Shown here: in pieces, positions 31,043 through 50,035 of the stretch
How the letters are laid out: each line of letters opens with the position of its first letter
Position numbering within the stretch: position 1 is the stretch's first letter
Assembly (NCBI GenBank): GCA_963704905.1
Contig: CAVPHZ010000001.1
Coordinates: 707,438 to 771,437, forward strand
Direction of reading: 5' to 3'
Source of the DNA: Candidatus Chisholmbacteria bacterium
Lineage (GTDB): Bacteria > Patescibacteriota > Microgenomatia > UBA1400 > Chisholmbacteraceae
DNA length: 64,000 nt
The notes under the pieces: generated by a model
Seen by the model: the letters and a program-made list of their open reading frames with translations, nothing else
What the model was told of the DNA's origin: nothing
Databases searched by the model: none
Position numbers and translations under genes: made by a program

Positions 31043-31068
31043 GATGACAGGGTCCGGTCTTTTCAGTC
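31043..31068. repeat. REP-like palindrome, family A (core TGACAGGGTCCGGTC)
   Basis: gatgacagggtccggtcttttcagtc at the 3' end of the transposase gene. Confidence 0.5.
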
Positions 31069-31746
31069 TATAGCGAGGTCACCGACGAATTCTTTATCGT
31101 CTTGATGGGATGACTCAACGAAAGCTTTATACGAACTTACTCGTTCAAGGGAAGGGTGTTTATCGGATTTCTTGAAGTAAGAGAGGATAAATCTTGGTTT
31201 AACCCAGGTGGCTGTTTTTTCCCCTAGATAATACTGATAACTTGAGTAAGGATAAGTGACAAGGTCCGGTCCTGTCAGCTTGACAGGATTCAGGTGAATG
31301 TAACGGGAGAGGTGGAGGAGGTAGTTGTCTTCTGTTACCAGAGCGGCTTTGTATCTTCCTTGAAAGAGATAGCCAACGCGTTTATATCTTTTGTTGAAAT
31401 ACATTGAGTAAGTTGAGGCAAGGCTGCGGATTAGCTTAGGCATGCCGTTTTTTGTGATTTGTTTGATGAGTAGATGGAAGTGATTAGGCATGAGGCAATA
31501 TGCAAGGAGATCGACTTCTTTGTGAAGGTTCGCTAAAGGCCTTGGTCGGATGAGCGTTTGGTCTGTGGATTCTTCGATGGGGTGTTTGGCGTTTTGACTT
31601 GTTGGAGAAAGATAATATTTCAGGAGGTGGAGAAAGACTCGATAATCTTGGTCATCTTCGAAGATTTTGCGCTTTTCAACGCCACGGTTGTACACGTGAT
31701 AGTGTCCATCTTCAATGTAGACTTTGCGGCTGTGTTTGTGTGGCAT
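31063..31746 (-). CDS. IS200/IS605-like HUH tyrosine (Y1) transposase, RAYT-like
   Basis: Begins MPHKHSRKVYIEDGHYHVYNRGVEKRKIFEDDQDYRVF; contains the HUH motif MPNHFHLLI and catalytic-Tyr region GYLFQGRYKAALV...SRYIHLNP. The track ORF extends to 31938 only by reading through upstream palindromes. Confidence 0.75.
   Translation of the reverse strand: MPHKHSRKVYIEDGHYHVYNRGVEKRKIFEDDQDYRVFLHLLKYYLSPTSQNAKHPIEESTDQTLIRPRPLANLHKEVDLLAYCLMPNHFHLLIKQITKNGMPKLIRSLASTYSMYFNKRYKRVGYLFQGRYKAALVTEDNYLLHLSRYIHLNPVKLTGPDLVTYPYSSYQYYLGEKTATWVKPRFILSYFKKSDKHPSLERVSSYKAFVESSHQDDKEFVGDLAID
31256..31278. repeat. REP-like palindrome, family A, inside transposase CDS (in frame, encodes VKLTGPDLVTYP)
   Basis: gtgacaaggtccggtcctgtcag with arms TGACAAGG/CCTGTCA. 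Confidence 0.55.
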
Positions 31747-31752
31747 GATAGA

Positions 31753-31775
31753 GTGACAGGGTTCGGTCCTGTCAC
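31753..31775. repeat. REP-like palindrome, family A (perfect 8-bp arms)
   Basis: gtgacagg-gttcggt-cctgtcac, immediately 5' of the transposase start. Confidence 0.6.
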
Positions 31776-31803
31776 CTGTCAATCGTAACAGGTGGTAGTG
31801 TTG

Positions 31804-31826
31804 CTGACAAGACCCGGTCCTGTCAG
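31804..31826. repeat. REP-like palindrome, family A
   Basis: ctgacaag-acccggt-cctgtcag. Confidence 0.55.
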
Positions 31827-32000
31827 CGCGAGCGGAGCGAGTGCGGGATTGTGCAGGAAGATGAGAATTCTGGAGAAAAGAGGCGGCGAAGCCGCCTCGA
31901 ACATTTGAGTTAGTTTCCGAAGATAATGGTGCTGGCATTCAATTAGGTAAGGGTTGCTAAGGGAAGTTAAATTAAGGGCAGATAGGGGTTGGTAAGGGTA

Positions 32001-32026
32001 CCTTTAAGGGTTCAACCTTTAAAGGG
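32001..32026. repeat. palindromic repeat, family B (inverted orientation)
   Basis: cctttaagggttcaacctttaaaggg, 4 nt downstream of the stop of 32030..33799. Confidence 0.55.
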
Positions 32027-32029
32027 AGG

Positions 32030-33799
32030 TTAGTTGCCGAAGCGGACGGCACCGGCGTTGTACTCGTTACGGATTTGTTGGGGTGTCAGCGTATAGCGCC
32101 AGATTTTGACGTCGTCGATGAGGCCGTCAAAGGGTTCACCTCCATCGGATTCTGAGCCAATGTGAACATCCAAGGCGTTGGGGACATTTGCTGGAGTCAT
32201 ATAACAACCGCCGGGTGAATCATTTTCAAGTGATCCGTCTACATATATTGCTGCAGTGGAGGGGTTTCCCGAGTTGATATACGTGGCTGCAATATGATGC
32301 CAACCAGGCGAATCAATGAGGCTTGTGCCAAAGATCGTGCAAGCATTACTGCCATCTGTTACATAGAATCGAGCATTATCTCCTGAGCCAGATATTGTTA
32401 AGACGTAACCAGCGTCAGTGTTTGTTGCATAGTTGTTGTCTTTTGCAAGAATCACGTCATTGGTGCTTGCAGAATTTCGATAAACCCAGGCTGAGACGCT
32501 GAACTCGTCGTGAATATCGAGGAGATCGTCTTCGCCAATATTTACATAATCATCGTTTCCATCAAAGCCGAGGGAGGCGTTTCGTTTTCCTGTCGTACCG
32601 TCGTTCCACATTTCGTAGTTGTTGCCACTTGAGCATGAGCCGGTTGCGGTGTTTTGGGGTGGAGTACCGGTACCGGGGGTGATGGTTCCGGTGTTGCTGT
32701 TGCCGCTTGAATCATAGGCGTTGGTGCCGGAGCACTCATCAAATTTCCACCAGCCAACCGGTCCGCCGCGGTTGTATTCCCAGGCGATTTGAGCTTGGGT
32801 GCGGGCGGTGTTATAAACCCTAACTTGGTCGATCAATCCATTGAACTCTCCCGCGGGTGTTGAGTCGCCTGTACGTCCGATATTCCAGGTGTCTACACCT
32901 GCAGCATACGTTACGTTATTTGTATCAGCATTTTCTTGAACCCCGTCAACAAACAGCTTCCTATCAGTAGCAGAAGCAAAGACACCGGTTATGTAGTGCC
33001 ACGATCCATCGTTAATTGTTGTCGTACTTGCAACTGATTGTGATGTAGTGTTTTGGGCAATAATTGTAATGTTCCCAGTCAGATTTGTCTCAAGACTATA
33101 AATCACGTTTGACTGGGAGACGTCGGTCAAGGAAATGACTGTGTCCCGAACAGTTGTCGTTGTGTTTATCCAGGCAGAGAGGGTAAAGGGGTAGGCGCTG
33201 ACGAGCTGATCACTGGCTCCGATGTAATCACTACTCCCACCAAACTGTAGACAAGCTCCAAATTTACACGCACCAGCATGTCTCCAGGTAGGTGATCCAC
33301 CAAAGGTGCCTGTGTATCCGTTCCCTGATGTGTCGTATGCATTGGTTCCGGTTTTTTCGTCCAATTTCCACTCGGCAACAGGCGGAGTGCAGGCGGAACC
33401 TTGACCTGGGGGGCAGTATTCGTTTGTTGATGACCAGGATGCGTTGCCTGAGGAATCGGTGCTAGTGGCGCCGAAGACTTGCGAGAAGCCTTGGTTGTAC
33501 TCGGTCTTTATCTGATCGGCCGTGAGGGCGAAGTTGTAGATTTTGACTTCATCGATTTGGCCATCGAAATAATGATTTGGATTATCTGATTGCCAGGCAC
33601 TGCCGGAACCAATTTTGAGGCTGTTTGAAGTCGTAGGTATGCTGCCATCAAAGCTCGTAGAGCCTTTATTATTGCCGTCAATATATAGAGTAATGGTTGA
33701 GCTATCAACACTGGCGACCACATGATGCCAGGCACCCGACCAGTCATTAGTGTCTTTGACGGATGGACTAGCTTGTTCCATCGTAAAGAGAAATCCCAA
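32030..33799 (-). CDS. LamG/concanavalin A-like lectin repeat protein (C-terminal fragment of giant gene A)
   Basis: 589 aa with recurrent LamG_3-type motifs (FDGQIDEVKIYNFALTADQI, GLIDQVRVYNTARTQAQIAWEYNRGGPVGWWKFDE, GLIDDVKIWRYTLTPQQIRNEYNAG). Its start overlaps the upstream ORF, i.e. a frameshift. Confidence 0.6.
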   Translation of the reverse strand: MGFLFTMEQASPSVKDTNDWSGAWHHVVASVDSSTITLYIDGNNKGSTSFDGSIPTTSNSLKIGSGSAWQSDNPNHYFDGQIDEVKIYNFALTADQIKTEYNQGFSQVFGATSTDSSGNASWSSTNEYCPPGQGSACTPPVAEWKLDEKTGTNAYDTSGNGYTGTFGGSPTWRHAGACKFGACLQFGGSSDYIGASDQLVSAYPFTLSAWINTTTTVRDTVISLTDVSQSNVIYSLETNLTGNITIIAQNTTSQSVASTTTINDGSWHYITGVFASATDRKLFVDGVQENADTNNVTYAAGVDTWNIGRTGDSTPAGEFNGLIDQVRVYNTARTQAQIAWEYNRGGPVGWWKFDECSGTNAYDSSGNSNTGTITPGTGTPPQNTATGSCSSGNNYEMWNDGTTGKRNASLGFDGNDDYVNIGEDDLLDIHDEFSVSAWVYRNSASTNDVILAKDNNYATNTDAGYVLTISGSGDNARFYVTDGSNACTIFGTSLIDSPGWHHIAATYINSGNPSTAAIYVDGSLENDSPGGCYMTPANVPNALDVHIGSESDGGEPFDGLIDDVKIWRYTLTPQQIRNEYNAGAVRFGN

Positions 33800-35204
33800 T
33801 TTCTCCCGGGTTTACGTCATTATGAAAGAAAATGTAATTCCTTCGATCCGCTGCTCCAGAGTCAGGCCTCATTTTTGTCAGTGATTCTGAATATGTGGTT
33901 GTATCTTCAATATTAATCCAGTAAGAAACACTAAAATTATTTGAAAAATTCAATGACGGGTCGTCGGCTACTCTAACATAGTCATCGGTTGTGCCAGAGG
34001 TTTCAAAGTCTAAAGCTTTCCCGAATTTACCTGAATTGGTCCAGGTTGGGCAAGCGGAGTCGCCGGATTGGGGGCAGGAGGTTGCTCCGCCAAGGTTGCC
34101 ATTGTTTCCCTGTGGACTAGAATCATTGGCCGCGTCGCCGTATCCTTCGTCGAATTTGAGGTTCAGTATTGGGGAGCCGACGGGGGAGCCGGGGGCGGGA
34201 TGCCCGGCGTTCATGTCGGAAATTATTTGTTCCTGAGTGCGGGCGTAGTTGTAGATGCGGGCTTCGTCAATTCTTCCATTAGTGTATTCTAATGCTCCGG
34301 TTGAACCTCTTCTGCCGACTTCAAAATCTGCACTTGAATCATAAACTCCTCCTGAGTGGTTAGTTGTATCAGCGGACCCTCCGTTTATACTAATTCCAAT
34401 GTCGGTGTTATCTTCGTCATACCAAGCAGCCACGAAATACCAATTGTTAGCGGACGGGGATCCCAGAGTATCAGCATCAAGTGTGGTAAGACCACCTGCA
34501 CCACCATCACTGCTAACGAGAAATCTGAACCTATCTGTACTAGTACCTGTGTAGCTTAGGTTTGCAGACCAATTTCCCGTATCGCCCATCTGAGACATAA
34601 ATGCTTGAGCGTCGGACGCTTTTGCGTCCATATACACCCAAGCGGTATACGTAAAGCTTCCACCTGAGTGAGTATTGTCAAGTTGAGTACTAGAGGAGGA
34701 CAGGTATTCTGAATTTGCTGAAGTGAATTGTCCTGCACTTCCAAATTTTCCAATTGCTTGAGTAACAGTAGCATTGTCAGTAAGGTTGTTTTCGTTTCCT
34801 GATGAGTCATACCTTGCTCCAGATGATTCCTCCATTTTGTAGTACGCCACTGGCGCCGGCGCCGAGGTGTAGAGGGATTGGATTTCGGCGGGGGAAAGGG
34901 CGCGGTTGTAGATGCGGGCTTCGTCGACAGCTCCATTAAAGTAGTTACCGGACACTCCTCCCACGGCGAAAGCGCCGCTGCCGTCATTTCCACCACTTGC
35001 CGCCGTTGTGTCGATGGCAGATCCGTTGCACGTCCGGATGCCAATGGCGGCTTTTGATGCGTCGTGGTAGGCGACGACGAAGTACCAAGTGGAGGTTGAG
35101 AGATTACCGAAGCTGTCGGCATAGACGTTGGAAGAACTACCGGCGGCGTCGGTGTACCATTCGAACTGAAATCGGTAGTTTCCACCACCGATGTTGTTGG
35201 CCAC
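33768..35204 (-). CDS. LamG-repeat protein fragment (gene A)
   Basis: 478 aa with NGAVDEARIYNRALSPAEIQSLY, GRIDEARIYNYARTQEQIISDMNAGHPAPGSP. Continues in another frame upstream (35204..35677 of the track ORF 34556..35677). Confidence 0.55.
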   Translation of the reverse strand: MANNIGGGNYRFQFEWYTDAAGSSSNVYADSFGNLSTSTWYFVVAYHDASKAAIGIRTCNGSAIDTTAASGGNDGSGAFAVGGVSGNYFNGAVDEARIYNRALSPAEIQSLYTSAPAPVAYYKMEESSGARYDSSGNENNLTDNATVTQAIGKFGSAGQFTSANSEYLSSSSTQLDNTHSGGSFTYTAWVYMDAKASDAQAFMSQMGDTGNWSANLSYTGTSTDRFRFLVSSDGGAGGLTTLDADTLGSPSANNWYFVAAWYDEDNTDIGISINGGSADTTNHSGGVYDSSADFEVGRRGSTGALEYTNGRIDEARIYNYARTQEQIISDMNAGHPAPGSPVGSPILNLKFDEGYGDAANDSSPQGNNGNLGGATSCPQSGDSACPTWTNSGKFGKALDFETSGTTDDYVRVADDPSLNFSNNFSVSYWINIEDTTTYSESLTKMRPDSGAADRRNYIFFHNDVNPGEIGISLYDGTS

Positions 35205-35486
35205 TGAGGTAGTTTGCGTAGTCGGCCGTTCCGGCTTCCATTTGTACTCATCGGAAAACCCGAATTCAGAGTTGCGAGATTTACCCAGGCTGTAACTGTA
35301 TAGTCTCTATCTCCTGCGCTGAGGGTAGCGTTATCCGTTCTTGTAAGTCTTTCGGAGTTGGCGGAGGCGAAGTTGGATGCATTTCCAAACTTTCCTGAGC
35401 CCGAAGGCGTGGTGTTGTTGTCGGTTAGCGTAAAGGCGTTTCCTGATGAATCTGCTCTTGATACAGCTCCTGAGCCGTCTGATGTT

Positions 35487-36041
35487 TCATCCATTTTCCA
35501 ATATCCAGCCAGTCCTTCGGAGAGGGGATCGGCGGTGAGGGTGGCCGTAGGATTGGGAGGTTTGGGAACCCAAGACATCGCCTCTGACCTGGTCTGCGGT
35601 TCTGGCATAGGGATAGATGACGATTTCGTCGAGGTTGCCATCCCAAGGGTTGGAACTCCCATCTGTATCAATACCAATAAAGAGATCGGTGTTGTCGTTT
35701 AAGGAATTATCTGCACCTGTTGAAGAGTTCTGGGTGATTAGCGCTCCATCGATGTAAATGCTAATTGAGGTTGTGCCGTCTTTGACGGCTTCGAAGTGGT
35801 GCCATTGACTGTCGGCATAGCTTCCCTGGGCGGCAGTTGTGCAGGCCGTATCCTCAGGGAAGGAGGTTGCGTCGTCGTCAATCCCAAGGCAGATATAACC
35901 GGAGCTATCCATGTAGATTTTGTAGCCCGCATCGTCATACCTCGCCAGGATGGTATTTGTTCCATCGATAGTGGAGGAGTGGCGGAACCAACCGCTAATG
36001 CTAAAGCTACCGCGTTCCAAAATTAAAGTCCGTGTCTGCAT
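35487..36041 (-). CDS. LamG-repeat protein fragment (gene A)
   Basis: 184 aa with ...WHHFEAVKDGTTSISIYIDGAL...GNLDEIVIYPYARTADQV; overlaps its neighbours in other frames. Confidence 0.5.
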   Translation of the reverse strand: MQTRTLILERGSFSISGWFRHSSTIDGTNTILARYDDAGYKIYMDSSGYICLGIDDDATSFPEDTACTTAAQGSYADSQWHHFEAVKDGTTSISIYIDGALITQNSSTGADNSLNDNTDLFIGIDTDGSSNPWDGNLDEIVIYPYARTADQVRGDVLGSQTSQSYGHPHRRSPLRRTGWILENG

Positions 36042-37110
36042 TCCGAGTCAAATAGTCATCTGTTCCATCAAAGGAGAGGTTTCTCTCCAATTGTGCTTGT
36101 CCGCCTATGCCGGTGGTGTTCCAGGTGGCGCCAGAAATTGTCAGGTGATTGCCGTATGGTGATGAATCGGAAGCGGTGGTGCCATAGCCTTCGTCAAAGT
36201 GCCAGACGGCAACCGGGTTTTGGCCTTTGTCGTCTGAGAAGGCATCCACTTCTATGCCTTCGGAGTGGGAAACGAGGCCGGATTGGTAGAGATCAGTGAC
36301 CTCGGCTGCACTTAGGTCGTCCTCGAAAATTCGGATATCCGAGTACTGCCAGATCGTCCCCCCGCTCGAGCTGGGGAGAAGGATTGTTGATGTGTTTCCG
36401 GGGTCGGTGGTATTCGCGTTTGTTCCTGGGGTTCCGGCATTCAGATATAAACTTATTCCTGTGGTTGAGTTCCACGTTGCTGCAAGATGGTACCAAGTGT
36501 TGGCGGCGATGTTCACTTGTTTATAGGCAATGTTATTTGAATAGCCAACCACTTTATTAAGGCGGAATTCTGCTGTTGGATAGGCGTTATATTCGAGCCT
36601 GAATCCGTCCCCGCTTGTTTCGTAGTTAAGAATGCCTTGTATTGTTGACGCGATCTGGCTTTGTGAGAGGTTTGATTTTACCCATAGACTCATACTTCCT
36701 TCGTCAGTTGTGAAGTTGCTCGTGCCCCCTGCATACTGAACGTTAGCTGCGGTGCGAGTACTTGTACTTTCGTGTGCTGTCCCGCTCCAGGAGTAGCCAG
36801 TGCCCAGGGTCCCGTCAGCATAGGTGGTGGGGTAGGATTTTTGCTCGAGCTGGATACCGTCGATGTAGAGGGTGCCTGAGTCTTCGACAAGAGTAACGCC
36901 ATAATTTTGAGCGCTTGCTGTTCCTGCGGCGGTGTAGCTTAGGCGCCACCAACCACCTCCCACGTCCGTGTAGGTTGTTCCTGCTTGCGCTGAACCTTGC
37001 CAATAAAGCTGGGCGATTGTGTTGTTAACCGTTCCTCCCTTGATTCTCCGAACATAAGCAGAGAGGGTATGAGTATTGGTGTTGCCTGCATCTGATTGAG
37101 GTGTAGACAT
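36007..37110 (-). CDS. LamG/jelly-roll repeat protein fragment (gene A)
   Basis: 367 aa, S/T/G/N/Y-rich beta-strand composition. Overlaps 35487..36041 and 37025..37720. Confidence 0.5.
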   Translation of the reverse strand: MSTPQSDAGNTNTHTLSAYVRRIKGGTVNNTIAQLYWQGSAQAGTTYTDVGGGWWRLSYTAAGTASAQNYGVTLVEDSGTLYIDGIQLEQKSYPTTYADGTLGTGYSWSGTAHESTSTRTAANVQYAGGTSNFTTDEGSMSLWVKSNLSQSQIASTIQGILNYETSGDGFRLEYNAYPTAEFRLNKVVGYSNNIAYKQVNIAANTWYHLAATWNSTTGISLYLNAGTPGTNANTTDPGNTSTILLPSSSGGTIWQYSDIRIFEDDLSAAEVTDLYQSGLVSHSEGIEVDAFSDDKGQNPVAVWHFDEGYGTTASDSSPYGNHLTISGATWNTTGIGGQAQLERNLSFDGTDDYLTRNADTDFNFGTR

Positions 37111-37720
37111 TTTGATTGGTTGAATCTGATAGGACGAGTTTGTAAGAGGAACCGCCGAATTTCATATATGGGTTATTTGTCTCTTCGGAGGCTGAACCAC
37201 CAGATGCGGTCCAGCCGGTGCTGTAGGTCGCATGTTCAAAGGAGGGATTAGTGACCTTGTTGGTGGTGCTTTCCTCAATGAAGACACCTTCATGGCCGGC
37301 GTAGGTATTCCCACCCTCAACCTTTCCATTGCCGGTTGTGCTTGTATCAGCACCTACTAATCCGGCGACGTACCTCGGGGTTCCATTGATTGTTCCATGA
37401 TACCCGTTTCCTGAGTCGTCGATGGTTTTGCCGGTGTTTCTGGGGTCGTCGCCGTTTTCGTCGAAGTGGTAGAGAAGTAGGGTGTAATCATCGCGGACAA
37501 ACGGTTCTATTGAGGGTGTGAAGCTAGATGAGTAGCGTTTAGTGTTGGAGATTCTAACCTCGTCTATCATGCCTGGGAATTGTTGAAGGATCTCACTATC
37601 TCTCCCAATCCAGAACGTATTGGCGGAGTCACTCTTGGTAGCCTCCTGTACATGCGTTAGTAGTGCTATATGCGGGTTCGGAGCCATTAATAAATATCTG
37701 CGGTGTGCCGGAACTTGCAT
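37025..37720 (-). CDS. LamG-repeat protein fragment (gene A)
   Basis: 231 aa with ...GMIDEVRISNTKRYSSSFT... LamG-type motif. Confidence 0.5.
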   Translation of the reverse strand: MQVPAHRRYLLMAPNPHIALLTHVQEATKSDSANTFWIGRDSEILQQFPGMIDEVRISNTKRYSSSFTPSIEPFVRDDYTLLLYHFDENGDDPRNTGKTIDDSGNGYHGTINGTPRYVAGLVGADTSTTGNGKVEGGNTYAGHEGVFIEESTTNKVTNPSFEHATYSTGWTASGGSASEETNNPYMKFGGSSYKLVLSDSTNQNVYTSIRCRQHQYSYPLCLCSENQGRNG

Positions 37721-38699: not shown

Positions 38700-38719
38700 A
38701 GATTAGTTTCCAGTTTCCA

Positions 38720-38995: not shown

Positions 38996-39096
38996 CCAGG
39001 CGCTTTGGTCAGCGGTGAAGGTTTGTACTGAGTCTGCGCTAATTCGGTTTCCGTTTGAGTTGTCGTAAAGAACTAACCCTAAGGTGTCGGTGTTGC

Positions 39097-43100: not shown

Positions 43101-43546
43101 TTTCCGTAGTAATGATAGAAGGCATTGCCTCCATTAATAATGGTGGGAAAGAGGACATCATAGGTTGTGGCGGCGTTATTGCAGGTGCCGGTGAGATCGA
43201 GTCTCAAGAGTAATCCGTTGATGTCGGTGAACCTGCTGTCATCACAGTCAGATTGCATTTTTCCGGCTGTGATCAAAGTTGCGGTATCAATTGTTACCTC
43301 AACCCTTCTGTCAGTGAGTGCTGCATTGTGGGTAAAGGAGTACCTTGTTCTATATGCCCAGGAGTCATCGAACCAGCCTGCTTGTGCGGGTTGAGAATGA
43401 TAGAGGGAGTAGAGAATGACGGGGAGCAATACCAAGAGCAAACCTCCCGCAACTGGAAGCAGTTTTCTTCTGTTTTTTTGGATTGCAGATTTCATTGCAG
43501 ATTTCAGAGATTTCAGATTTATGATGCTAAGTCTAAATTTCTTCAT
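40154..43546 (-). CDS. giant DUF2341 + tandem LamG_3 (concanavalin-like) surface protein, gene B (longest intact ORF, 1130 aa)
   Basis: N-terminus MKKFRLS...NRRKLLPVAGGLLLVLLPVILYSLYHS, then AGWFDDSWAYRTRYSF...DCDDSRFTDINGLLL...YHYYGNPSAGS (DUF2341-like), then at least 6 LamG-type units each ending ..[FI]DEVK[IL]Y.Y.R....I. A 12-bp tandem repeat sits in the first codons. Confidence 0.8.
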   Translation of the reverse strand: MKKFRLSIINLKSLKSAMKSAIQKNRRKLLPVAGGLLLVLLPVILYSLYHSQPAQAGWFDDSWAYRTRYSFTHNAALTDRRVEVTIDTATLITAGKMQSDCDDSRFTDINGLLLRLDLTGTCNNAATTYDVLFPTIINGGNAFYHYYGNPSAGSVSEDLSSYTSLSPSGGAPSAGSEEIGPGPIAYWKFDEGTDNTCENGTDDTCDIGVGKNDGVRNGATWQTEDMCKNGKCLQFDGTDDYVSVADPGANSVLDFDSGDEITIAFWFKATTIPGYSDQGILLGKGATTGSDNANYQIWIWDADGSGDNEIKFGYEQSGGGYPDWGINDDRIVENKWMHFAMTFTFGTSSSWQAYLNGMPVEAADGGADVAPTLSNDPLWVGAANWAGGASVDGAFDGFIDEVKIYPYARSADEIKVDYNKGAAASFGPDNSWLSNGLVGYWKMDDNVSGDGQTVTDSSGNSNNGTTDYGANTTGMDCTVPGKFGYGCQVDGTDDNIAMGSPDSLDGSGPFTASAWIKPTSDTGYVISKRNTSGDTGYWRLALIPTNAIAFLKETDDNPNLEIVTANNIFSTSQWNHVVVTFGGTTSASEAHIYVNGIEATYVSTTNGGGNNITDASSNFNVGSRDATSSFYPGIVDEVRYYQKALSPAEVSALYNWAPGPFGYWKLDEGQNDKAYDSSGNGITGTLGNTTTVLWRNGKFGNGIETSSFTSSTDRISLSTASSVKGLAAFTTEGWVYPTSSGTSGRGRYFYAENTSDMSSVGRNVVGVINNYAGCGAGVFGAFFRSAGQSSVIVCDPNTFSTHEWYHVAAVYNSVTDIHKLYVNGILVDTSTTSATTMDTGNPLNTPVLGNWVAGSGYNFPGIFDEVKLYSYERNPSQIISDMNAGHPAPGSPIGSPVLHLNFDEGYGDAANDSSPQGNNGDLQGSCPGAATCPSWTNEGKYGKALNYDGGDYISIADDDSLNPSDEITLSAWVNPSTLSGYDTIMSAFTAGAGACTGKNIYFYTQGGTVGVVLSGPQTCDWNSSVSISTGIWTHLAVTYNGSIIKLYKNGILEDSVSASGTLNLSSHSLPIYIGYNTAWGEYWDGKIDEVKIYNFALTADQVKAEMNQGKSAVFGATSTDSSGYRHLVGH

Positions 43547-43547
43547 A

Positions 43548-43573
43548 CCTTTAAAGGTTGAACCCTACAAGGG
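43548..43573. repeat. palindromic repeat, family B
   Basis: cctttaaaggttgaaccctacaaggg immediately 5' of the gene B start codon. Confidence 0.55.
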
Positions 43574-43584
43574 TGGGTTTTCTA

Positions 43585-44265
43585 TTATTCTATTATTAAT
43601 GGGCCTAGTGCTTCTTGGCTATCGATCTCCTGTGCTTCTACAAAGGCTTTGTAGGTTTGTGTTTTCAAAAGACCTTTGAGAGTTGGGGAGGTGAAAAAGT
43701 CTAGAACGATATTTGGTTTTATCCAGGAATCTTGCCGTTTTTTTATGTAGTTTGCATACGAAGAGTACGCATTTTCAAGGCTTTTTGCGTACTCGGAAGG
43801 ATTAAGGTGTATATACCGCGAGAGGTGCAGGAGGTAGTTATCGTTTCCTACTAGCACAGCTTTGTAGATACCCTGGAAGAGTGAGCCTACTCGCTTATAT
43901 CTTTTATTAAAATACATCGAGTAGCGGGTGAGCAGTGACTGCATAAAACTCTTCATGGCCCCTTGTTCTTTTTGCTGGAGGAGGAGATGGAAGTGATTTG
44001 GCATCAGACAATAGGCGACTAATTTGATTTTTTTATGAAAGTTTTTTGGCAGGCGAGGCACACCTTTAAAGGTTGAACCCTTAAAGGTGACATTTACTGC
44101 GAATTTATTTGGATCGGGAGGTTTTGTTAGGGAGGTTTTGAGGTATTTGAGAAAGACTCTATAGTCTTGATCGTCCTCGAAAATTGTGCGCTTTTCAACA
44201 CCTCTGTTGTAGATGTGATAGTAACCGTCTTTGATGCTGATTTTTATGATGTTTTTAGCAGGCAT
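43585..44265 (-). CDS. IS200/IS605-like HUH tyrosine (Y1) transposase, RAYT-like, paralog 2
   Basis: MPAKNIIKISIKDGYYHIYNRGVEKRTIFEDDQDYRVF...MPNHFHLLL...GSLFQGIYKAVLV...SRYIHLNP. Roughly 55-60% identical to 31063..31746, with an embedded family-B repeat encoding TFKGSTFKG. Confidence 0.75.
   Translation of the reverse strand: MPAKNIIKISIKDGYYHIYNRGVEKRTIFEDDQDYRVFLKYLKTSLTKPPDPNKFAVNVTFKGSTFKGVPRLPKNFHKKIKLVAYCLMPNHFHLLLQQKEQGAMKSFMQSLLTRYSMYFNKRYKRVGSLFQGIYKAVLVGNDNYLLHLSRYIHLNPSEYAKSLENAYSSYANYIKKRQDSWIKPNIVLDFFTSPTLKGLLKTQTYKAFVEAQEIDSQEALGPLIIE
44058..44088. repeat. palindromic repeat, family B, inside transposase CDS
   Basis: cacctttaaaggttgaacccttaaaggtg, a near-perfect 31-bp palindrome. 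Confidence 0.55.
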
Positions 44266-44294
44266 GGCAGTGGTTGTTTGTTTTCATAATCTTA

Positions 44295-44320
44295 CCCTTT
44301 AAAGGTTGAACCCTGCAAGG
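44295..44320. repeat. palindromic repeat, family B
   Basis: ccctttaaaggttgaaccctgcaagg, between the transposase start and the gene C stop. Confidence 0.55.
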
Positions 44321-45196
44321 TTAGGGGCCGAAATAGACGGCGCCGTTGTTGTAGGCTTTTTTGACTTGGTCGGGTGAGAGCGGGTAGCTGTAGAACTTGA
44401 CTTGGTCTATCTGGCCGTCGAAAGGATTGCCGCCATCGGACTCGGAACCGATGCGGAAGTCGAGGGCATTGTCGGGGTTGCTGCCACCTCCTTGTCCAAT
44501 GGTGCCAGGAATTCCGTCTATATATATCCTCACTAATTCATTTCCACCACTTCCGTCGAACTCATAGGTGACGACGATATGGTGCCAGTTGCTGTCTGTG
44601 ATTGTGGACGGACCCTGTCCGATTACAGCTCCACTTCCATTGCCGGCTGTAAACTGCACTAAGTCACCCGGGTGAATGTATAGTGCATACCCATCTGTTG
44701 TAGAGACGGAAATATCGTTGTCCTTAGCTACTATGACATCAAAGGTATTGTAGGTGTCTCTGCTCACCCAGGCTTCGATGGAGAAGCTTTCTCCTTCTGC
44801 GATATCCAGTTCGTCCGGGTCGTTCATGTCGACATAATCGTTGGTGCCGTCGAAGTCGAGCGAGGCATTGCGTTTTCCTACGGTGCCGTTGTCCCACATT
44901 TCGTCTCCTGCGCCTGAAGAACAGGTTCCGACGGAGTCATTGGAACCACTAGTGTCACCGGGTACGATAGTTCCGTTGTTGCCGAAATTGCTGTCATCAT
45001 AGACGGTGGTTCCCTGGCATTCGTCCAGCTTCCATTGGCCGATGGGAGCGCCTCGGTTATATAGCCAGGCGGCTTGGGCAGTGGTCACAGCAAAGTCGTA
45101 GACAGTGACCCCATCGATTATGCCCGTTGAACTCATCCGTGGTATTGTGGGCTGCGCCAACCTGGAAGTTATTGGAATTTGAGGGCGAGTTGACAT
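44321..45196 (-). CDS. LamG-repeat C-terminal fragment of giant gene C
   Basis: 291 aa ending ...FDGQIDQVKFYSYPLSPDQVKKAYNNGAVYFGP. Overlaps the upstream ORF by 140 nt in another frame. Confidence 0.55.
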   Translation of the reverse strand: MSTRPQIPITSRLAQPTIPRMSSTGIIDGVTVYDFAVTTAQAAWLYNRGAPIGQWKLDECQGTTVYDDSNFGNNGTIVPGDTSGSNDSVGTCSSGAGDEMWDNGTVGKRNASLDFDGTNDYVDMNDPDELDIAEGESFSIEAWVSRDTYNTFDVIVAKDNDISVSTTDGYALYIHPGDLVQFTAGNGSGAVIGQGPSTITDSNWHHIVVTYEFDGSGGNELVRIYIDGIPGTIGQGGGSNPDNALDFRIGSESDGGNPFDGQIDQVKFYSYPLSPDQVKKAYNNGAVYFGP

Positions 45197-46550
45197 TTAC
45201 CAGGATTCCGCTATTCCCTTCTTCGTCCGCCTGTCCGTCAATATAGATGGTGGTTAGCGTGTCGCTGTTGTCATCCCAGACGGCGACGACGTGATGCCAG
45301 CCGCTGTTGGCGGAGAACGTCGTGTTGCTGTGGGTGATGTACTGGTCTGTTCCGTCGTCAACCTCAAAGCGGATGTCATCGCTACCCGAACCTTCGAAGT
45401 AGAGATTGTAATGGGCTCCGGCACCTCCAGGTCCGGCACCTTTGCCGACGATTACCTGGTCAGAGGTGACGTCGCTGCCGATATTAAACCAAGCAGAGAT
45501 GGTGAAATCCTGACTGTCGCCAAAATCAATTTCGTTACTGCAGTCGACTTCCTGAGCTCCAGAATACTTCAACGCTTTCCCTCCCAGTCCGTTTGAGTTG
45601 CGAGGGCCTTCTGCAACGTTCACTCTAGTGGGATCCTGGGATTCCGAACCTGAGGTGGTTCCCAGGTAGCATTCCATGCTTGCATCTTCTGAGTGGGCAA
45701 AAACATTTTGGCCATCGGGGTCTTCAAAGTAGAGCTCAATGAGCGGGTCGCTTAAGCTATTTCCTTCTTCATCATGGTCAGCGACATTGCCAAATGAAGC
45801 AGAGGAGGCGAAGTTATAATCGGCTATGATCTGGGAGCGGGTCAGGGTGGAGCCGTAGACTTTCATTTCATCAAGCATGCCTCCGTTGAAATCAGCAATA
45901 TTTCCAGAGTTTACGAAGAAGGTTGTATCCTCACCGTTGTTCGCCGATCCGATATCGCCTATGGTTCCCGAGTGTGACTCGTTGTCATCGTTGCCGTCGA
46001 TATAGATTTTGCTGTTGCCTCCACTACCGCCTGAGTCCTGGTCCCAGATGATAGCAAAATAGTGCCAGCCGGAAGCGGTGAAGGTGGTGGTGCTGGCCAT
46101 TTCATACTCATCGGTACCGTCGTCAATTTCAAATACCAGTTTGTCACTAGTTCCGTCGATGTAAATACTCCAACCGGCTGATGTCCGGTCAGCCCGTTTT
46201 GAAAATAAGGCATGGTCAGAATTAAAATCTGCCGTGCGGTTAAACCAGCCGGTAAAGGTGCGGTCGTCCGTGTCATTGATATCAAAGAGCTCAACGTCGG
46301 TAGCTGCCCCCCCTACGTCGGCTGAGCATGAGGTCCCGTTGCACAATGATGTACCGTTTACTTTCCCTGCAAACCTCCACAGCTGGTCGGCACCGCCAGC
46401 TACAGCGATAACTGCATCGTTTTGATTTACAGATTGGTCACATATGTCGCTGGTGCCATCGGTGCAGGTGTTGTTGCGCATCTCATCGAACTTCCAGTAG
46501 CCGATCGGTGAACCGATGGGAGAGCCGGGGGCGGGGTGGCCGGCATTCAT
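45057..46550 (-). CDS. LamG-repeat fragment (gene C)
   Basis: 497 aa. Starts MNAGHPAPGSPIGSPIGYWKFDE (motif shared with genes A and B) and contains GGMLDEMKVYGSTLTRSQIIADYN. Confidence 0.55.
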   Translation of the reverse strand: MNAGHPAPGSPIGSPIGYWKFDEMRNNTCTDGTSDICDQSVNQNDAVIAVAGGADQLWRFAGKVNGTSLCNGTSCSADVGGAATDVELFDINDTDDRTFTGWFNRTADFNSDHALFSKRADRTSAGWSIYIDGTSDKLVFEIDDGTDEYEMASTTTFTASGWHYFAIIWDQDSGGSGGNSKIYIDGNDDNESHSGTIGDIGSANNGEDTTFFVNSGNIADFNGGMLDEMKVYGSTLTRSQIIADYNFASSASFGNVADHDEEGNSLSDPLIELYFEDPDGQNVFAHSEDASMECYLGTTSGSESQDPTRVNVAEGPRNSNGLGGKALKYSGAQEVDCSNEIDFGDSQDFTISAWFNIGSDVTSDQVIVGKGAGPGGAGAHYNLYFEGSGSDDIRFEVDDGTDQYITHSNTTFSANSGWHHVVAVWDDNSDTLTTIYIDGQADEEGNSGILVNVNSPSNSNNFQVGAAHNTTDEFNGHNRWGHCLRLCCDHCPSRLAI

Positions 46551-47141
46551 GTCTTCAACTATTTGTTCATCGGTGCGAGCATAGTCGTAAACTGTGGATC
46601 GTCGATCACACCGTTGAAGAATTGCTCACTGCCAGCGCGAGTTCGTGCACCTATTCGGATATCAACATCGCTAGCGTCTTGTATTACCAACGGACCGGAC
46701 GTGCTTATATTGAGTGTTGAATCAAGCCATAGTTTTGTTTCTGATCCTGCAGTTAGACGACGTGATATAAAGTGCCATTGTCCTGGGGTAATCGTTCCAA
46801 TGCTTGGGTCGCCACTCGGCTTGAACTCGTATAGACTCCAAATTCTACAGCTCCACTGGAACTTAATTGGCAATAGTACAACCTTTGGGACGTTCCACTA
46901 TCTTGTGCAATAATGATTTGTCTAACTGCTGCTGAGTTGGACTTTATCCATGCTGTTATCAGTCATGCTATTCCCTTCTAAATGGTCGTTGGTGCCTGTG
47001 GTCAAGTCGTCATCTCTTTCGTCAAAATCAAGTGCACCGCCAAATCTTCCAGGAACCCAATCTGATTCTGTCATACTAGCATCCGGAGGGTACCTTACTG
47101 CTTTGAGAGAGCGATCGTAGGCGGTGGTGCCAGTATTTTCG

Positions 47142-49073
47142 TCAATTGGCCAATAAGCGATACGGTCCCGGCGCCCAGTTGTAGAGGGCTTGTACCTGTT
47201 TTGGGGAAAGCGCGTGTTTATAGACACGCAGGTCATCAATGTGGCCATCATAGTAGTTGGCTGGTGTTCCTGAAGAGTCCTCGGCTCCTACGACTAACTC
47301 TCCCGCATCATTTCCAATAGACGAGGGAATAGTGCCTGTGGTAGAGCTGGCTTGAAGCTCTCCATTGACAAAGAGCTTGACCGTTTGAGATGACGCATCA
47401 TAGACTCCGACCACATGTTGGAGGGTATTGGCTGAGAGCGGTGTTCCAGTTGTGGCTTCATAGTTTGCGGCAGCATCTATATACATTCGTAGATTGGCCC
47501 CTTCCATTGCAAGCAGATAACTTTCATTGGCACCATCCCATTTGCCAATGATATCCTGACTCCCGGTTGTATCATCAGGGTTTATCCAAGCTGAGAGTGT
47601 GAGACTTCCGGTTACTGAGAGATAGGCATTATCCACCACATCAAAGTACTGTGATGATCCATTGTGCTCAGACCCGTTGCCAAACTTTGCACCGGTGAAG
47701 GTAGTGGTCCCGGTATTGGTCAGTGTTGTTCCATTTCCACTCAGATCTGTTGCATTTCCACTTAATTCATCCATCTTCCAGTAGCCGATGAGGCCGTCGG
47801 AGAGCCAGGAATTGTCGGGGCCGAAGGCGGCCGCATAGCTCTGATTGTAGTCTGATTTAATTTCAGCTTCAGAACGAGCGTAGCGGTAGACTTTGATTTC
47901 ATCCAAAAACCCTTCCCATTGGCCACCTGCGCCATCACCATCCAGACCAATGTAGAAATCGTCGCTGTTTTCGAGCGTACCGGTGGCAGCGATGGACGTA
48001 TCTGAAGCGACCTCTACGCCGTCGATATACAGGTTGATTGAGGTGGTGCCGTTTTTTACTGCGGAAAAGTGATGCCATTTGCTATCGGCATAATTGGCAG
48101 TGCTGGTCGCGATGTCGGAATTCGAGCCATTGTCGATAGTAAATGATATATAGCCTAAATTTTCCATTCTCACTTCATAACCGATGCCAGTATTTCTCTT
48201 CGTGATGATGTTGTCGGCTCCGGCAGGCGTACTTGTGTGGCGGAACCAGCCTGAGAGGGTAAAGTCCGTATTCGCATCAAAGTCAAGCTGATCGTCGTCG
48301 GTCCTGGTTAAGTATTGCTGGGTGGGGATGTCAAACTCGAAGCGCAAACACTTTCCTGAGATACACTCATCTTCAGTACGCCAGGTGGCATTGGTTTTTG
48401 AAAGGTCGATACCGTGGCCGGTTGCGTCGCAAGCGTCGTTGGTTCCGCCAGAGCAGGTGTTGTCCACGCCTTCGTCGAACTTCCAGTAGGCGACGGGGCC
48501 TGGGCTTGCTTCCTCAGCTTCATAGGAACCATAGGCCGGAACTGTCGGGGTGGTGGTTGCCAGTTTTCTGGTAAAGACGTGGTCGACGGAGAAAGTGTTG
48601 GTTATATCAGTAGTTTCTAGTCTGACATATTGTGCAGAGTTTGGATACTGTGTTGAGTGTGTGGCGCTTGTGCCATCAACGCTCAACACTGCATTGCTTG
48701 CACCTATGGTGATGTCGTACTGATGATAGGAGGTGTCTTCGGCGACCGCTGCTGTTGAGGATTGGGTTGTTCCTCCGTTGGCTGTCTCTGTTTCATGGTT
48801 CCCGCCGGTAGTAGCATCGAAGAACATGGCGGCTGAGTCGTCAGTTGTGTAGCTCGTAGTGATGGTGGCGGTGTTACTGAACCCAAGCCTTCCGAGTGCG
48901 GCGGTGTTATTTTGGCTGGCTCGCATAGTGACAACCTCAACGTCGTTATCTCCTGGGCTGGCATCACCAAATGTGTCGGCTGAGGCAATGCCTTCCAGGT
49001 CGGTGGCGTCGTCGGTAGCAAGAGGGAGAGGTTCCCAGACCCAACAGAAGGAGCATCTTCTTGATAAGCCCAT
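47142..49073 (-). CDS. LamG-repeat fragment (gene C)
   Basis: 643 aa with GFLDEIKVYRYARSEAEIKSDYN, GHIDDLRVYKHALSPKQVQALYNWAPGP. The small ORFs 46559..46873 and 46922..47251 between this and 45057..46550 carry the same kind of motifs in shifted frames. Confidence 0.55.
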   Translation of the reverse strand: MGLSRRCSFCWVWEPLPLATDDATDLEGIASADTFGDASPGDNDVEVVTMRASQNNTAALGRLGFSNTATITTSYTTDDSAAMFFDATTGGNHETETANGGTTQSSTAAVAEDTSYHQYDITIGASNAVLSVDGTSATHSTQYPNSAQYVRLETTDITNTFSVDHVFTRKLATTTPTVPAYGSYEAEEASPGPVAYWKFDEGVDNTCSGGTNDACDATGHGIDLSKTNATWRTEDECISGKCLRFEFDIPTQQYLTRTDDDQLDFDANTDFTLSGWFRHTSTPAGADNIITKRNTGIGYEVRMENLGYISFTIDNGSNSDIATSTANYADSKWHHFSAVKNGTTSINLYIDGVEVASDTSIAATGTLENSDDFYIGLDGDGAGGQWEGFLDEIKVYRYARSEAEIKSDYNQSYAAAFGPDNSWLSDGLIGYWKMDELSGNATDLSGNGTTLTNTGTTTFTGAKFGNGSEHNGSSQYFDVVDNAYLSVTGSLTLSAWINPDDTTGSQDIIGKWDGANESYLLAMEGANLRMYIDAAANYEATTGTPLSANTLQHVVGVYDASSQTVKLFVNGELQASSTTGTIPSSIGNDAGELVVGAEDSSGTPANYYDGHIDDLRVYKHALSPKQVQALYNWAPGPYRLLAN

Positions 49074-49630
49074 TTAAATGCGTTTGGAGTTGATCCAACT
49101 GAGAAGGCATCGAAGAATTCAAATGTTTTTTCGCCGCTGCTGTAGGCATCCGCTGACGGATTGCCATAGTACATATAAATAGTAGTGTCCTCATCAATGG
49201 ATGGAACTTTTACCCAAATATCATAGTCGCTGGCTGAGCAATCGATGGTGTCGGCGGAGTTATTTTCATCTTCAATCCAGTAATCGAGAAGTTTGCCGCC
49301 TGTATCGGTGAAGCGGAGGTCGTCGCAGTCTGCTTGGAGTTTTCCGGCAGTATTTAAACCGTCGACATCGACCTCATCTAGTTCAACCTGAAAATCAGTG
49401 AGAGTTGTGGAGCCGGTGTAGGTGATAATAATGGCTTTTCTGTGTGACCAAGAATCGTTGTACCATGCAGCTGAGGCGCTATCAGAGTGATATAAACTAT
49501 ATAGTACTACTGGGATTAATATCAATAGAAGACCGAGGGATATCGGAAACAAACGTCTCCTCAAATTTTCAATTTTCAATTTTCGAATTTTCAGTGAATG
49601 GTTCATAATTTTCGAATTATCAATTATCAA
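48704..49630 (-). CDS. N-terminal part of giant gene C: signal-anchor TM + DUF2341-like module
   Basis: MIIDNSKIMNHSLKIRKLKIENLRRRLFPISLGLLLILIPVVLYSLYHS...AAWYNDSWSHRKAIIITY...DCDDLRFTDTGGKLL...IYMYYGNPSA. After about aa 190 the frame is spurious; the real continuation is 47142..49073. Confidence 0.6.
   Translation of the reverse strand: MIIDNSKIMNHSLKIRKLKIENLRRRLFPISLGLLLILIPVVLYSLYHSDSASAAWYNDSWSHRKAIIITYTGSTTLTDFQVELDEVDVDGLNTAGKLQADCDDLRFTDTGGKLLDYWIEDENNSADTIDCSASDYDIWVKVPSIDEDTTIYMYYGNPSADAYSSGEKTFEFFDAFSVGSTPNAFKWAYQEDAPSVGSGNLSLLLPTTPPTWKALPQPTHLVMPAQEITTLRLSLCEPAKITPPHSEGLGSVTPPPSLRATQLTTQPPCSSMLLPAGTMKQRQPTEEQPNPQQQRSPKTPPIISTTSP
49564..49592. repeat. heptanucleotide tandem repeat (AATTTTC)x3 plus an imperfect 4th copy in the 5' coding region of gene C
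   Basis: aattttc aattttc aattttc gaattttc on the + strand, i.e. (GAAAATT)n on the coding strand encoding ...LKIRKLKIENL. More degenerate copies extend to about 49660. Confidence 0.6.
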
Positions 49631-49660
49631 TTTTCAAACAATTATTCAATCTTCTAATTT

Positions 49661-50035
49661 TCAATCTTTATATTTTCTACTTGATTGGATAATCTTGCTA
49701 AAAATCAATAGAAGTTCCTGTCCTTCCTTCCAGAGTTTTTTAATTGTTTCCTTTTTACCTGGATTTGTTTTAGCAAGTAACCGCAGCCAGTGTTTTGTTT
49801 CTTTTATTTCCTTTTTGCAGATTGCAATTTTATGTACGAAATCTCTTTTACTTTCGGCTTCAGTGGCTTCTGCATAATTGGCACCGATAGATCCTCCTGA
49901 TCCGACAAGTTGTTCAATAATCCTTCTATTCAGAGGAGAGATACTTATTGTCTTAAGAGCGTCAATGATCTCCTCTGCGTATATTGCTGTTCGTTCCTCT
50001 AGATCGTATCGTGTTTTTTTTACTGCTTGAGTCAT
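49661..50035 (-). CDS. four-helix-bundle protein (23S rRNA intervening-sequence protein / Avd-like family)
   Basis: 124 aa with ...LVGSGGSIGANYAEATEAESKRDFVHKIAICKKEIKETKHWLRLL..., matching the four-helix-bundle family that includes DGR accessory protein Avd. Confidence 0.75.
   Translation of the reverse strand: MTQAVKKTRYDLEERTAIYAEEIIDALKTISISPLNRRIIEQLVGSGGSIGANYAEATEAESKRDFVHKIAICKKEIKETKHWLRLLAKTNPGKKETIKKLWKEGQELLLIFSKIIQSSRKYKD

Follow-up and report, generated by a model that had tools for sequence, protein, structure and literature searches.

The 64-kb stretch of the public 773-kb contig CAVPHZ010000001.1 from a Candidatus Chisholmbacteria bacterium (hereafter the window, taken at its full length, to which all coordinates refer) carries an array of three giant genes, here called A, B and C, which an earlier note described as shattered paralogues partitioned by transposases and palindromic repeats. 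The array is an ordinary adhesin-like surface-protein locus of Microgenomates (candidate phyla radiation, CPR/Patescibacteria), of a common and known kind, and the shattered-paralogue pattern reduces to a common CPR adhesin family, known small HUH elements in non-coding gaps, and indel-only breaks of the reading frame that are most economically taken as technical. We put the probability that most of the 14 breaks are consensus or polishing errors of the metagenome assembly, which was probably a long-read one, at roughly 60%, and if the breaks are technical the organism would possess A, B and C as intact surface proteins of roughly 1,600–2,200 aa. The residual interest is modest and lies in the origin of indel-only breaks confined to accessory genes and in a co-varying three-copy repeat architecture of the transposase genes in the gaps.

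All credible genes between 28711 and 64000 lie on the minus strand according to the open reading frame (ORF) listing and a three-frame map, as the earlier note had stated, and the three giant genes follow one another in tandem:

44321..49630, minus strand: gene C, DUF2341 plus LamG_3 giant surface protein, ~1,765 aa when stitched, 6 frame changes
38720..43546, minus strand: gene B, giant surface protein with LamG_3, ~1,607 aa after stitching, 2 frame changes
32030..38699, minus strand: gene A, giant surface protein with LamG_3, ~2,220 aa after stitching, 6 frame changes

The probable start of gene C is the ATG at 49606, while gene A begins either at the ATG at 38699, in which case its N-terminal tail holds the repeat copy at 38638–38662 in frame, or at a GTG near 38618. 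The 5' part of gene B is an intact ORF of 1,130 aa (40154–43546) followed by two frame changes, across which the gene stays collinear with homologues of 1,500–1,950 aa; that this is the only long intact ORF of the array had been noted before and holds. Laminin_G_3 (PF13385) scores above its gathering threshold with multiple domains in A, B and C, and nearly every fragment is positive: the long ORF of gene B reaches 316 bits, fragments of gene A 240 and 136 bits, and fragments of gene C 183, 117 and 99 bits, with the stitched gene A giving eight LamG_3 stretches and 534 bits. Three tandem genes with paralogous signal-anchor N-termini and multiple LamG_3 domains are thus present as proposed, and in the Pfam scan the calls of LamG_3 and Y1 transposase families proved correct. 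The further proposal that each gene has a DUF2341-like module stands for gene C, where DUF2341 (PF10102) scores 72.2 bits; gene B stays below the gathering score of 23.4 bits with 14.5 bits over model positions 1–60 of 84, and gene A has no match. A precomputed PF10102 match is absent from many other members of the family too.

A search with the gene B ORF returned more than 1,600 relatives at E ≤1e-10, with collinear homology down to E 1e-240, from genomes of Roizmanbacteria, Daviesbacteria, Gottesmanbacteria and the 'Microgenomates group' as well as from metagenomes. The best 120 of these relatives are nearly all single ORFs of 1,420–1,970 aa, and after the self-hit the next-best relative is only 38–44% identical. 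The membership of A, B and C in this family is given by full-length collinear homology and by shared landmarks, namely the AxW.D..W.YR anchor, DMNAGHPAPGSP, and the C-terminal IDDV.IYNYALT...FG. These giants, which NCBI names 'DUF2341 domain-containing protein' or 'LamG-like jellyroll fold domain-containing protein', have the same signal anchor, DCDD.RF module, 6–8 LamG_3 domains, single DMNAGHPAPGSPVGSP and C-terminal motif as the proteins of the window. They differ in that the relatives are single ORFs (~1,400–2,000 aa), whereas the frames here are interrupted 14 times as assembled, and DUF2341 exceeds the Pfam threshold here in gene C alone. Large DUF2341 proteins of Patescibacteria have been proposed to serve adhesion or host interaction (PMC11809585), and from this literature and their domain content an adhesin-like surface role of A, B and C seems reasonable.

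The three proteins are only 29–36% identical to one another over their full length. Their best DNA matches are 75–81% over 130–200 nt, with a single match of 89.6% over 48 nt between B and C at a conserved motif, and the comparison found no stretch of at least 40 nt above 90% identity. The blocks of A and B that were thought near-identical are therefore 75–81% identical in DNA and contain a landmark of the whole family, DMNAGHPAPGSPVGSP (written DMNAGHPAPGSP[VI]GSP), which occurs once per protein in 88 of the 120 homologues. The C-termini, which had been taken to point to gene conversion, fare no differently, as the GQIDDV+IYNYALT..Q....YN.GAVRFGP motif is common to homologues, and so is the N-terminal signal anchor with AxW.D..W.YR and DCDD.RF; the shared termini are family-wide. 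With an identity of 29–36% and motifs conserved throughout the family, there is no trace of recent exchange, and we reject gene conversion as the source of the shared motifs. Judged by these comparisons, A, B and C are anciently diverged tandem paralogues, each with its own start and signal anchor.

To map the breaks we used sliding blastx with 240-nt windows against 119 homologues of the family, which assigned every window to one frame. The frame path is 1-2-1-0-1-2-1 in C, 1-0-1 in B and 2-1-0-2-1-2-1 in A, which amounts to 14 frame changes (6, 2 and 6) in both the +1 and the −1 direction:

48707..49073, minus strand: frame change C0, frame 1 to 2, localised to this interval by stop-free overlap and the blastx map
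47145..47287, minus strand: frame change C1, one extra base at ~47162, where residues 641/642 of homologue P0013 abut at 47163/47161; a site without homopolymer
46925..46962, minus strand: frame change C2, from stop-free overlap and the blastx map
46756..46897, minus strand: frame change C3, from stop-free overlap and the blastx map
46562..46625, minus strand: frame change C4, at ~46592–46600, within the IDD..VYDYA motif
45060..45196, minus strand: frame change C5, at ~45123, with residue 1268 of homologue P0084 on either side
40157..40227, minus strand: frame change B0, one extra base at ~40177, where residues 1349/1350 of homologue P0007 abut at 40178/40176
39100..39106, minus strand: frame change B1, pinned to 7 nt, as the stop-free stretches share only these
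37632..37732, minus strand: frame change A0, at ~37634 by homologue alignment
37028..37161, minus strand: frame change A1, from stop-free overlap and the blastx map
36010..36047, minus strand: frame change A2, one extra base at ~36012, where residues 259/260 of homologue P0049 abut at 36013/36011
35490..35698, minus strand: frame change A3, at ~35522 by homologue alignment
34559..35306, minus strand: frame change A4, at ~35100–35320 by the blastx frame map
33771..33811, minus strand: frame change A5, at ~33802 by homologue alignment

Neighbouring stop-free stretches overlap, and the stitched frames (1,765, 1,607 and 2,220 aa for C, B and A) run without an in-frame stop over 16.8 kb. At each localised junction the residue numbering of the homologue runs on with an offset of 1 nt; introns and inteins are ruled out by this contiguity to within 1 nt, and stop-codon reassignment is ruled out as the breaks are changes of frame, not stops. 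A homopolymer of at least 4 nt is absent from 6 of the 14 junction intervals, and the localised sites lie outside runs, on which ground homopolymer error was rejected as the cause; slippery heptamers and short tandem repeats were likewise looked for at the localised sites, and none was found. The proposal that the chains of ORFs in shifting frames stem from indels rather than stops is confirmed in this respect. It has to be amended in another, since genes other than the LamG ones are broken too. At 7041–8449 (minus strand) an MDR/ADH-like gene is read in three overlapping frames, i.e., with two frame changes and no stop, and its weak match to the alcohol dehydrogenase structure PDB 8h2a is collinear across the frames. 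One further change probably affects the gene next to the array:

50070..63993, minus strand: giant repetitive protein region, upstream boundary of the locus, two ORFs overlapping by 92 nt

These two ORFs comprise 2,813+ and 1,857 aa, and the repeat motif carries on across the overlap in the other frame, so that the region reads most naturally as a single gene of probably more than 4,600 aa with one frame change near 55552–55655. This brings the count to about 17 breaks (14 in LamG genes, 2 in the MDR/ADH-like gene and 1 in the giant gene), all of them indels, all in accessory genes, and without a nonsense codon.

Two properties of this set have to be accounted for, its distribution and its lack of stop codons. 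At the rate of 0.83 breaks per kb seen in the LamG genes, 16 breaks are expected in the 19.2 kb of 17 other genes (among them S1, RadA, Rho, a Na/H exchanger, two PMT-like genes, an M23 peptidase, Wzy/TPR and both transposases), and none is present (P ~1e-7). As for stop codons, 4.1% of random substitutions in the LamG coding sequence would create one, and the probability of finding none alongside 14 indels is 0.18 at 3 substitutions per indel, 0.003 at 10 and 1e-5 at 20. The observed absence of stops with 14 indels thus requires no more than 3 substitutions per indel, and an indel-only pattern of this sort argues for consensus error and not for neutral decay. In the mechanism that we propose, the region would be strain-variable in the sampled population, such that the reads of co-existing variants were collapsed or short-read polishing failed, and the errors would thereby be confined to strain-variable accessory genes; their restriction to accessory genes could then be explained by this variability. 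Collapsed alleles are known to give spurious indels and apparent frameshifts in consensus assemblies (PMC8445201), and small-indel frameshifts are a recognised problem of long-read metagenomics (10.1101/2021.08.23.457338). Several observations sit uneasily with consensus error. The usual nanopore frameshifts are homopolymeric and strike long essential genes too (10.64898/2026.04.03.716430), whereas the sites here are mostly non-homopolymeric and the housekeeping genes are clean, so a special cause (strain collapse or failed polishing) has to be assumed. The adjacent 14-kb giant gene, which would be expected to be strain-variable, has at most one break where ~11.6 are expected at the LamG rate (P of ≤1 ~1e-4). 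Selection acting on real mutations would also limit breaks to dispensable genes, and every ORF fragment is a singleton, from one 772,908-bp contig, in a collection of 15 billion proteins, so that the case for an artefact is indirect. The earlier note had itself listed repeat-induced assembly error among its readings; assembly error is indeed the best-supported one, but we reject its repeat-induced form, as paralogues with no more than 81% identity across no more than 200 nt (89.6% in a single 48-nt stretch) differ too much to mislead an assembler.

If the indels were instead real, the LamG, giant and ADH-like genes would be under relaxed selection after the triplication and would be very recent pseudogenes, possibly shaped by an indel-biased mutation process. 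We consider this unlikely, although parts of the pattern agree with it: the breaks fall in dispensable accessory genes only, with the 19 kb of housekeeping and other genes intact, the sites are unlike the homopolymer sites typical of sequencing error, and GC skew is positive window-wide, so that the minus-strand genes are all on the presumably lagging strand. Candidate processes with an indel bias are a head-on replication–transcription conflict, the broken genes being all on the C-rich strand, or a lack of mismatch repair; replication–transcription collisions are reported to induce indels. What speaks against real mutation is that 14 indels (17 with the other genes) occur without a nonsense codon, for which P is at most 0.003 at 10 or more substitutions per indel; that every fragment still scores strongly for LamG_3 with no visible decay; that all three paralogues would have lost their function in a family that relatives keep conserved and intact; and that slippage should fall preferentially in runs and short repeats, a preference that is not seen. 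Recent massive pseudogenisation, as it had been put, is accordingly possible but strained, for it needs 14 indels without a stop codon, and the idea that the breaks reflect a mutational process specific to indels, acting on surface genes of the lagging strand in a CPR bacterium, is a less likely one. Real breaks would mean that an episymbiont-type bacterium lost its entire surface-protein cluster at once, by an unusual process specific to indels.

Sequencing error of the ordinary kind, spread uniformly at random or in homopolymers of long reads with nothing special about the locus, would also give an indel-only pattern, but it is very improbable: it is rejected by the distribution of the breaks, with 16 expected and none seen in the 19.2 kb of other genes, ~11.6 expected and at most one seen in the giant gene, and sites that are mostly non-homopolymeric. 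Programmed recoding or phase variation, in which the breaks would be bypassed by ribosomal frameshifting or transcriptional slippage or toggled as contingency loci, agrees with stitched frames that lack stop codons and with nothing beyond that, and is hardly credible. It would require six breaks per gene in A and C, in both the +1 and the −1 direction, without slippery heptamer, homopolymer or short tandem repeat at the localised sites and in a family whose homologues are single ORFs, and a change of frame is not repaired by reassignment of a stop codon. Simple-repeat contingency genes, for comparison, change frame within homopolymers or short tandem repeats, which is not the case here. With consensus error as the preferred explanation, it follows for users of the public contig that unless frames are corrected they will undercount intact giant surface proteins and overcount pseudogenes.

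The gaps of the array hold two transposase genes and two families of short repeats. The genes are as follows:

43585..44265, minus strand: RAYT-like gene 2, 226 aa, intact Y1/HUH gene with HFH motif and RYIHLNP with the catalytic Tyr, Y1_Tnp 46.2 bits
31063..31746, minus strand: RAYT-like gene 1, 227 aa, intact Y1/HUH gene, Y1_Tnp 49.5 bits

With a Pfam cut-off of 23 bits for Y1_Tnp, the two HUH transposase paralogues that had been predicted at these positions are borne out, and both proteins contain NHFH and RYIHLNP. We call them RAYT-like (RAYT, REP-associated tyrosine transposase; REP, repetitive extragenic palindromic), as REP_Tyr_transpos (NCBIfam NF047646) is the best family for both, at 49.6 bits for gene 1 and 41.2 bits for gene 2, below the equivalog cut-off of 80. 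Each gene has more than 7,800 relatives of ~226–230 aa, mostly from Patescibacteria, the named ones coming from Woesebacteria, Chisholmbacteria or the Patescibacteria group. From sample to sample the genes of these relatives have unchanged genomic neighbours, which suggests a resident gene rather than an active insertion sequence (IS). Searching PDB sequences with a profile of the family yielded no match, and an AlphaFold2 model of gene 2 had a mean predicted local distance difference test (pLDDT) score of 63, with values below 50 at the repeat-encoded residues 56–71, and only Foldseek matches at E ≥0.3, from which we conclude nothing. The public ORF call for gene 1 (291 aa, starting at 31938) reads through the hairpin at 31880–31898 and both upstream palindromes and is probably too long.

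Repeat 1 is 25 nt long and occurs five times in the window, with 0 copies expected by chance, and repeat 2, TGACAGGACCGGACCCTGTCA (TGACAGG..CCTGTCA), which had been missed before, occurs in four copies around RAYT-like gene 1. The copies, given without strand, are:

44296..44320: repeat 1, copy on the 5' side of RAYT-like gene 2, immediately following the gene C stop codon
44063..44087: repeat 1, internal in-frame copy of RAYT-like gene 2, encodes TFKGSTFKG, −9.9 kcal/mol, z −5.2
43548..43572: repeat 1, copy on the 3' side of RAYT-like gene 2, one base ahead of the gene B ATG
38638..38662: repeat 1, solo copy flanked by the gene B stop and the gene A signal anchor, sharing the reading frame of the ATG at 38699
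32001..32025: repeat 1, solo copy 4 nt past the gene A stop, loop inverted relative to the other copies
31805..31825: repeat 2, distal upstream copy of RAYT-like gene 1, hairpin of −8.9 kcal/mol, z −3.4
31754..31774: repeat 2, copy on the 5' side of RAYT-like gene 1, 8 nt ahead of its ATG, −7.6 kcal/mol, z −3.1
31257..31277: repeat 2, internal in-frame copy of RAYT-like gene 1, encodes LTGPDLVT directly after YIHLNP
31045..31065: repeat 2, degenerate copy on the 3' side of RAYT-like gene 1, whose stop codon it overlaps

The five copies of repeat 1 had been reported as a 26-bp palindrome lying exactly at gene ends or starts. They are real, at 25 nt, but the copy listed at 44058 is in fact 44063–44087 and lies inside the transposase coding sequence, where it forms the sole perfect hairpin among the copies of repeat 1. 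Only two of the five (the internal copy and that at 32001) fold better than shuffled sequence. A role of repeat 1 as operon terminator is ruled out on this account, with three of the five copies folding like shuffled sequence and a proper terminator-like hairpin close by between gene A and the first RAYT-like gene:

31880..31898, minus strand: strong intrinsic-terminator-like hairpin GAGGCGGCTTCGCCGCCTC, stem of 8 pairs (7 G-C) with a TTTTCT tail, ~130 nt past the end of gene A

Could these elements be what shapes the array? In a REP/RAYT-driven cassette system the transposases and palindromes would move, exchange or switch LamG modules, and the breaks would be scars or off-states. RAYT-like genes and repeats do lie in the three gaps of the array and after it, and all five copies of repeat 1 in the window fall within 12.3 kb of the locus. 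Still, we regard such a system as extremely doubtful. No recently exchanged sequence was found, the paralogues being 29–36% identical with a maximum of 89.6% in DNA over the 48 nt of a family-wide motif. Y1 transposases of the IS200/IS605 and RAYT families mobilise single-stranded DNA bounded by hairpins and are not known for gene conversion. All three LamG genes are full-length, and since each has a start and a signal anchor of its own, there is no silent cassette among them. The frame breaks and the repeat copies nowhere coincide, the repeats being all in gaps or inside a transposase gene. The unit of transposase plus repeats occurs elsewhere beside unrelated genes (pilus, glycosyltransferase, beta-lactamase-like), and a related locus, L008, has a LamG gene without any such element. 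The likeness to the pilE/pilS and vlsE cassette systems, which consists in co-oriented tandem surface-protein paralogues with border repeats, is superficial, as those systems have silent truncated cassettes, near-identical tracts and mosaic exchange, none of which is seen in A, B and C. A diversity-generating retroelement was also considered and rejected: there is no template/variable repeat pair (~100–150 nt, differing chiefly at adenines) in 28–56 kb and no reverse transcriptase domain in the ORFs scanned, which did not include every small ORF.

The earlier proposal of a cassette system that shuffles lectin-like surface proteins is therefore unsupported; the paralogues are old and the repeats belong to transposase units. 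Its description of the locus as partitioned by two transposases is right for one of them, which separates C from B, whereas the second follows gene A. The transposase units sit in non-coding gaps and, as we read the locus, do not shuffle the LamG genes; the solo copies of repeat 1 are in the remaining gaps, after B and after A. A position at gene boundaries is expected since the gaps are the only non-coding DNA in this compact stretch, where such elements can reside without doing damage, and it is no evidence that LamG genes are partitioned or moved.

The in-frame copies within the transposase genes deserve separate consideration, and the three-copy repeat is perhaps worth more than the finding that led to it, as a peptide motif is encoded by a gene-bounding palindrome in a very large CPR family. 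The peptide T[FL][KQ]G-xx-FKG[VI]PRQPKN, ahead of the HUH motif, is conserved across the subfamily of gene 2, which means that the copy at 44063–44087 is not an insertion, and an LTG-xx-[PL]V motif is conserved in the subfamily of gene 1. For the comparison between genomes (loci L005, L009, L012, L014, L016 and L017–L096) we used a sample of 65 metagenome loci with complete flanks and counted a match of at least 16/18 between 18-mers. The flank matches the internal site of its own gene in 40 of 65 loci, compared with 1 of 65 in a control in which the flank is paired with the gene of another locus, and the upstream flank matches the downstream flank in 45 of 65. Among the 40 loci the internal site lies before the HUH motif in 21, after the Tyr in 11, at both places in 1 and elsewhere in 7, and the median distance is 21 nt between the upstream flank copy and the ATG and 6 nt between the stop and the downstream one. 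It is clear from single loci that the loops co-vary: the loop is TTCAA in the window (encoding S, T), AGCCT in all three copies of L009 (A, S) and GGTTA/GGTAA in L012 (L, P), and in L016 the three copies are an identical 23-mer, TTGACAGGGCCGCACCCTGTCAA. This layout of a gene with an internal repeat between two flank repeats is seen again in other, unrelated genomic settings. Dispersed copies beyond these are rare, with 4 in 82 kb around 40 relatives and 2 solo copies in the 64-kb window.

A full-text literature search for RAYT or IS200 together with CPR or Patescibacteria yielded no description of a third in-frame copy. One tentative and still doubtful interpretation is that CPR RAYT-like genes carry three co-evolving copies of a recognition repeat of which the internal one is functional, as a self-binding or autoregulatory site or as an alternative end, which would be an undescribed HUH design. 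Protein sequence and DNA substrate would then be one physical stretch and would have to co-evolve, and the solo copies in the LamG gaps as well as the in-frame copies in other genes would be non-autonomous derivatives. The alternative is that the internal copy is merely homogenised by gene conversion. The three-copy repeat offers a testable handle on DNA recognition by the enzyme and on the origin of REP-like sequences.

As regards known systems, the likeness to RAYT/REP (Nunvar, 2010, PMC2817692; Bertels and Rainey, 2011, PMC3116915) consists in REP_Tyr_transpos as the best match and in tightly flanking cognate imperfect palindromes, and further in genes that are apparently single-copy and stably placed, each with its own repeat class and a few solo intergenic copies. 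In RAYT/REP systems, however, dispersed copies typically exceed 100 per genome and often form inverted pairs, while here they are rare in the window and around relatives, the flank copies of repeat 1 share their loop orientation and are not inverted, and the third in-frame copy co-varying with the flanks is a feature of the CPR genes. A conserved GTAG/CGTC tetranucleotide has been described at the foot of REP hairpins (PMC3733652); in the nine copies of the window this tag is not conserved, and GTAG appears only in the copy at 43548, inside an arm. With IS200-type IS the window units share a size of ~0.77 kb made up of the Y1 gene alone, subterminal hairpin-like repeats in the same orientation, an intergenic position and no visible target duplication. 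They differ in that the proteins are ~75 aa longer than IS200 TnpA, in that the IS200 model (NCBIfam NF033573, cut-off 55) gives gene 1 13.8 bits and does not match gene 2, and in that no second, identical copy is present in the window (64 kb out of the 773-kb contig), the two genes being 50% identical. In architecture the units resemble a self-contained IS200-like element, or a RAYT of low copy number, more than a classical REP system with its many copies.

In-frame copies are also met outside the transposase genes. An exact 19-mer scan with the core of repeat 1 in 185,579 species genomes, the source genome not among them, found 6 loci. The repeat is in frame in a GT2 gene of Gottesmanbacteria (L001 2810–2834, MFJR01000013.1; VTFKGSTFKG), whose Pfam alignment is only ~6 residues longer than the model; we do not accept this copy as a proven insertion, an excess of ~6 residues being insufficient. 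The copy at 38638–38662 likewise keeps the reading frame (LQGSTFKG), in what may be the N-terminal tail of gene A. Toleration of a repeat within coding sequence (TFKGSTFKG, LQGSTFKG, VTFKGSTFKG) recalls the Rickettsia palindromic elements, but the repeat here is far shorter (25–27 nt) and the copy in the RAYT-like gene is a conserved part of the family.

The wider neighbourhood of the array was compared with that in relatives. Next to the genes already given, it includes:

49661..50035, minus strand: four-helix-bundle ('23S rRNA intervening sequence protein') gene directly upstream of C, PF05635 55 bits, TIGR02436 73 bits
28711..30915, minus strand: Wzy_C plus TPR membrane protein, conserved downstream boundary of the locus, from Pfam and synteny with L008

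In L008, whose Rho is 64% identical, the order is a giant of 4,470 aa, a four-helix-bundle gene, one intact LamG gene of 1,506 aa, a second four-helix-bundle gene and TPR/Wzy, with an M23 peptidase and Rho further on. This order equals that of the window save for the triplication and the transposases, and the L008 locus contains no RAYT-like gene and neither repeat. Another relative, L007, has tandem intact LamG paralogues of 1,556 and 1,531 aa. Tandem paralogues and an adjacent four-helix-bundle gene are therefore found in relatives too, with three LamG copies here vs. one in L008, and the locus occupies a conserved chromosomal slot made up of the giant repetitive protein, the four-helix-bundle gene, the LamG gene or genes and the Wzy/TPR gene. 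The four-helix-bundle (TIGR02436) gene repeatedly adjoins LamG giants, at 49661–50035 in the window and at 9531–9899 and 14572–14904 in L008, and in the database entry P0040 it is fused with a LamG giant gene. A gene matching both TIGR02436 and the bAvd family lies at 4184–4549 in L016, near the RAYT-like gene.

A few features of the window as a whole may be added. Rfam and tRNA scans gave nothing beyond three tRNA-Ala genes, all outside the locus, which lie within 3.3 kb (25316–28597, minus strand); two have the anticodon GGC and one CGC, and one of the GGC copies has a poor Rfam score of 35 bits. GC skew is positive in every 2-kb block whatever the gene strand, up to 0.35 at the left end, which places the minus-strand surface-protein cluster on the C-rich, presumably lagging, strand, and GC content climbs from ~0.41 to 0.57 across the window.

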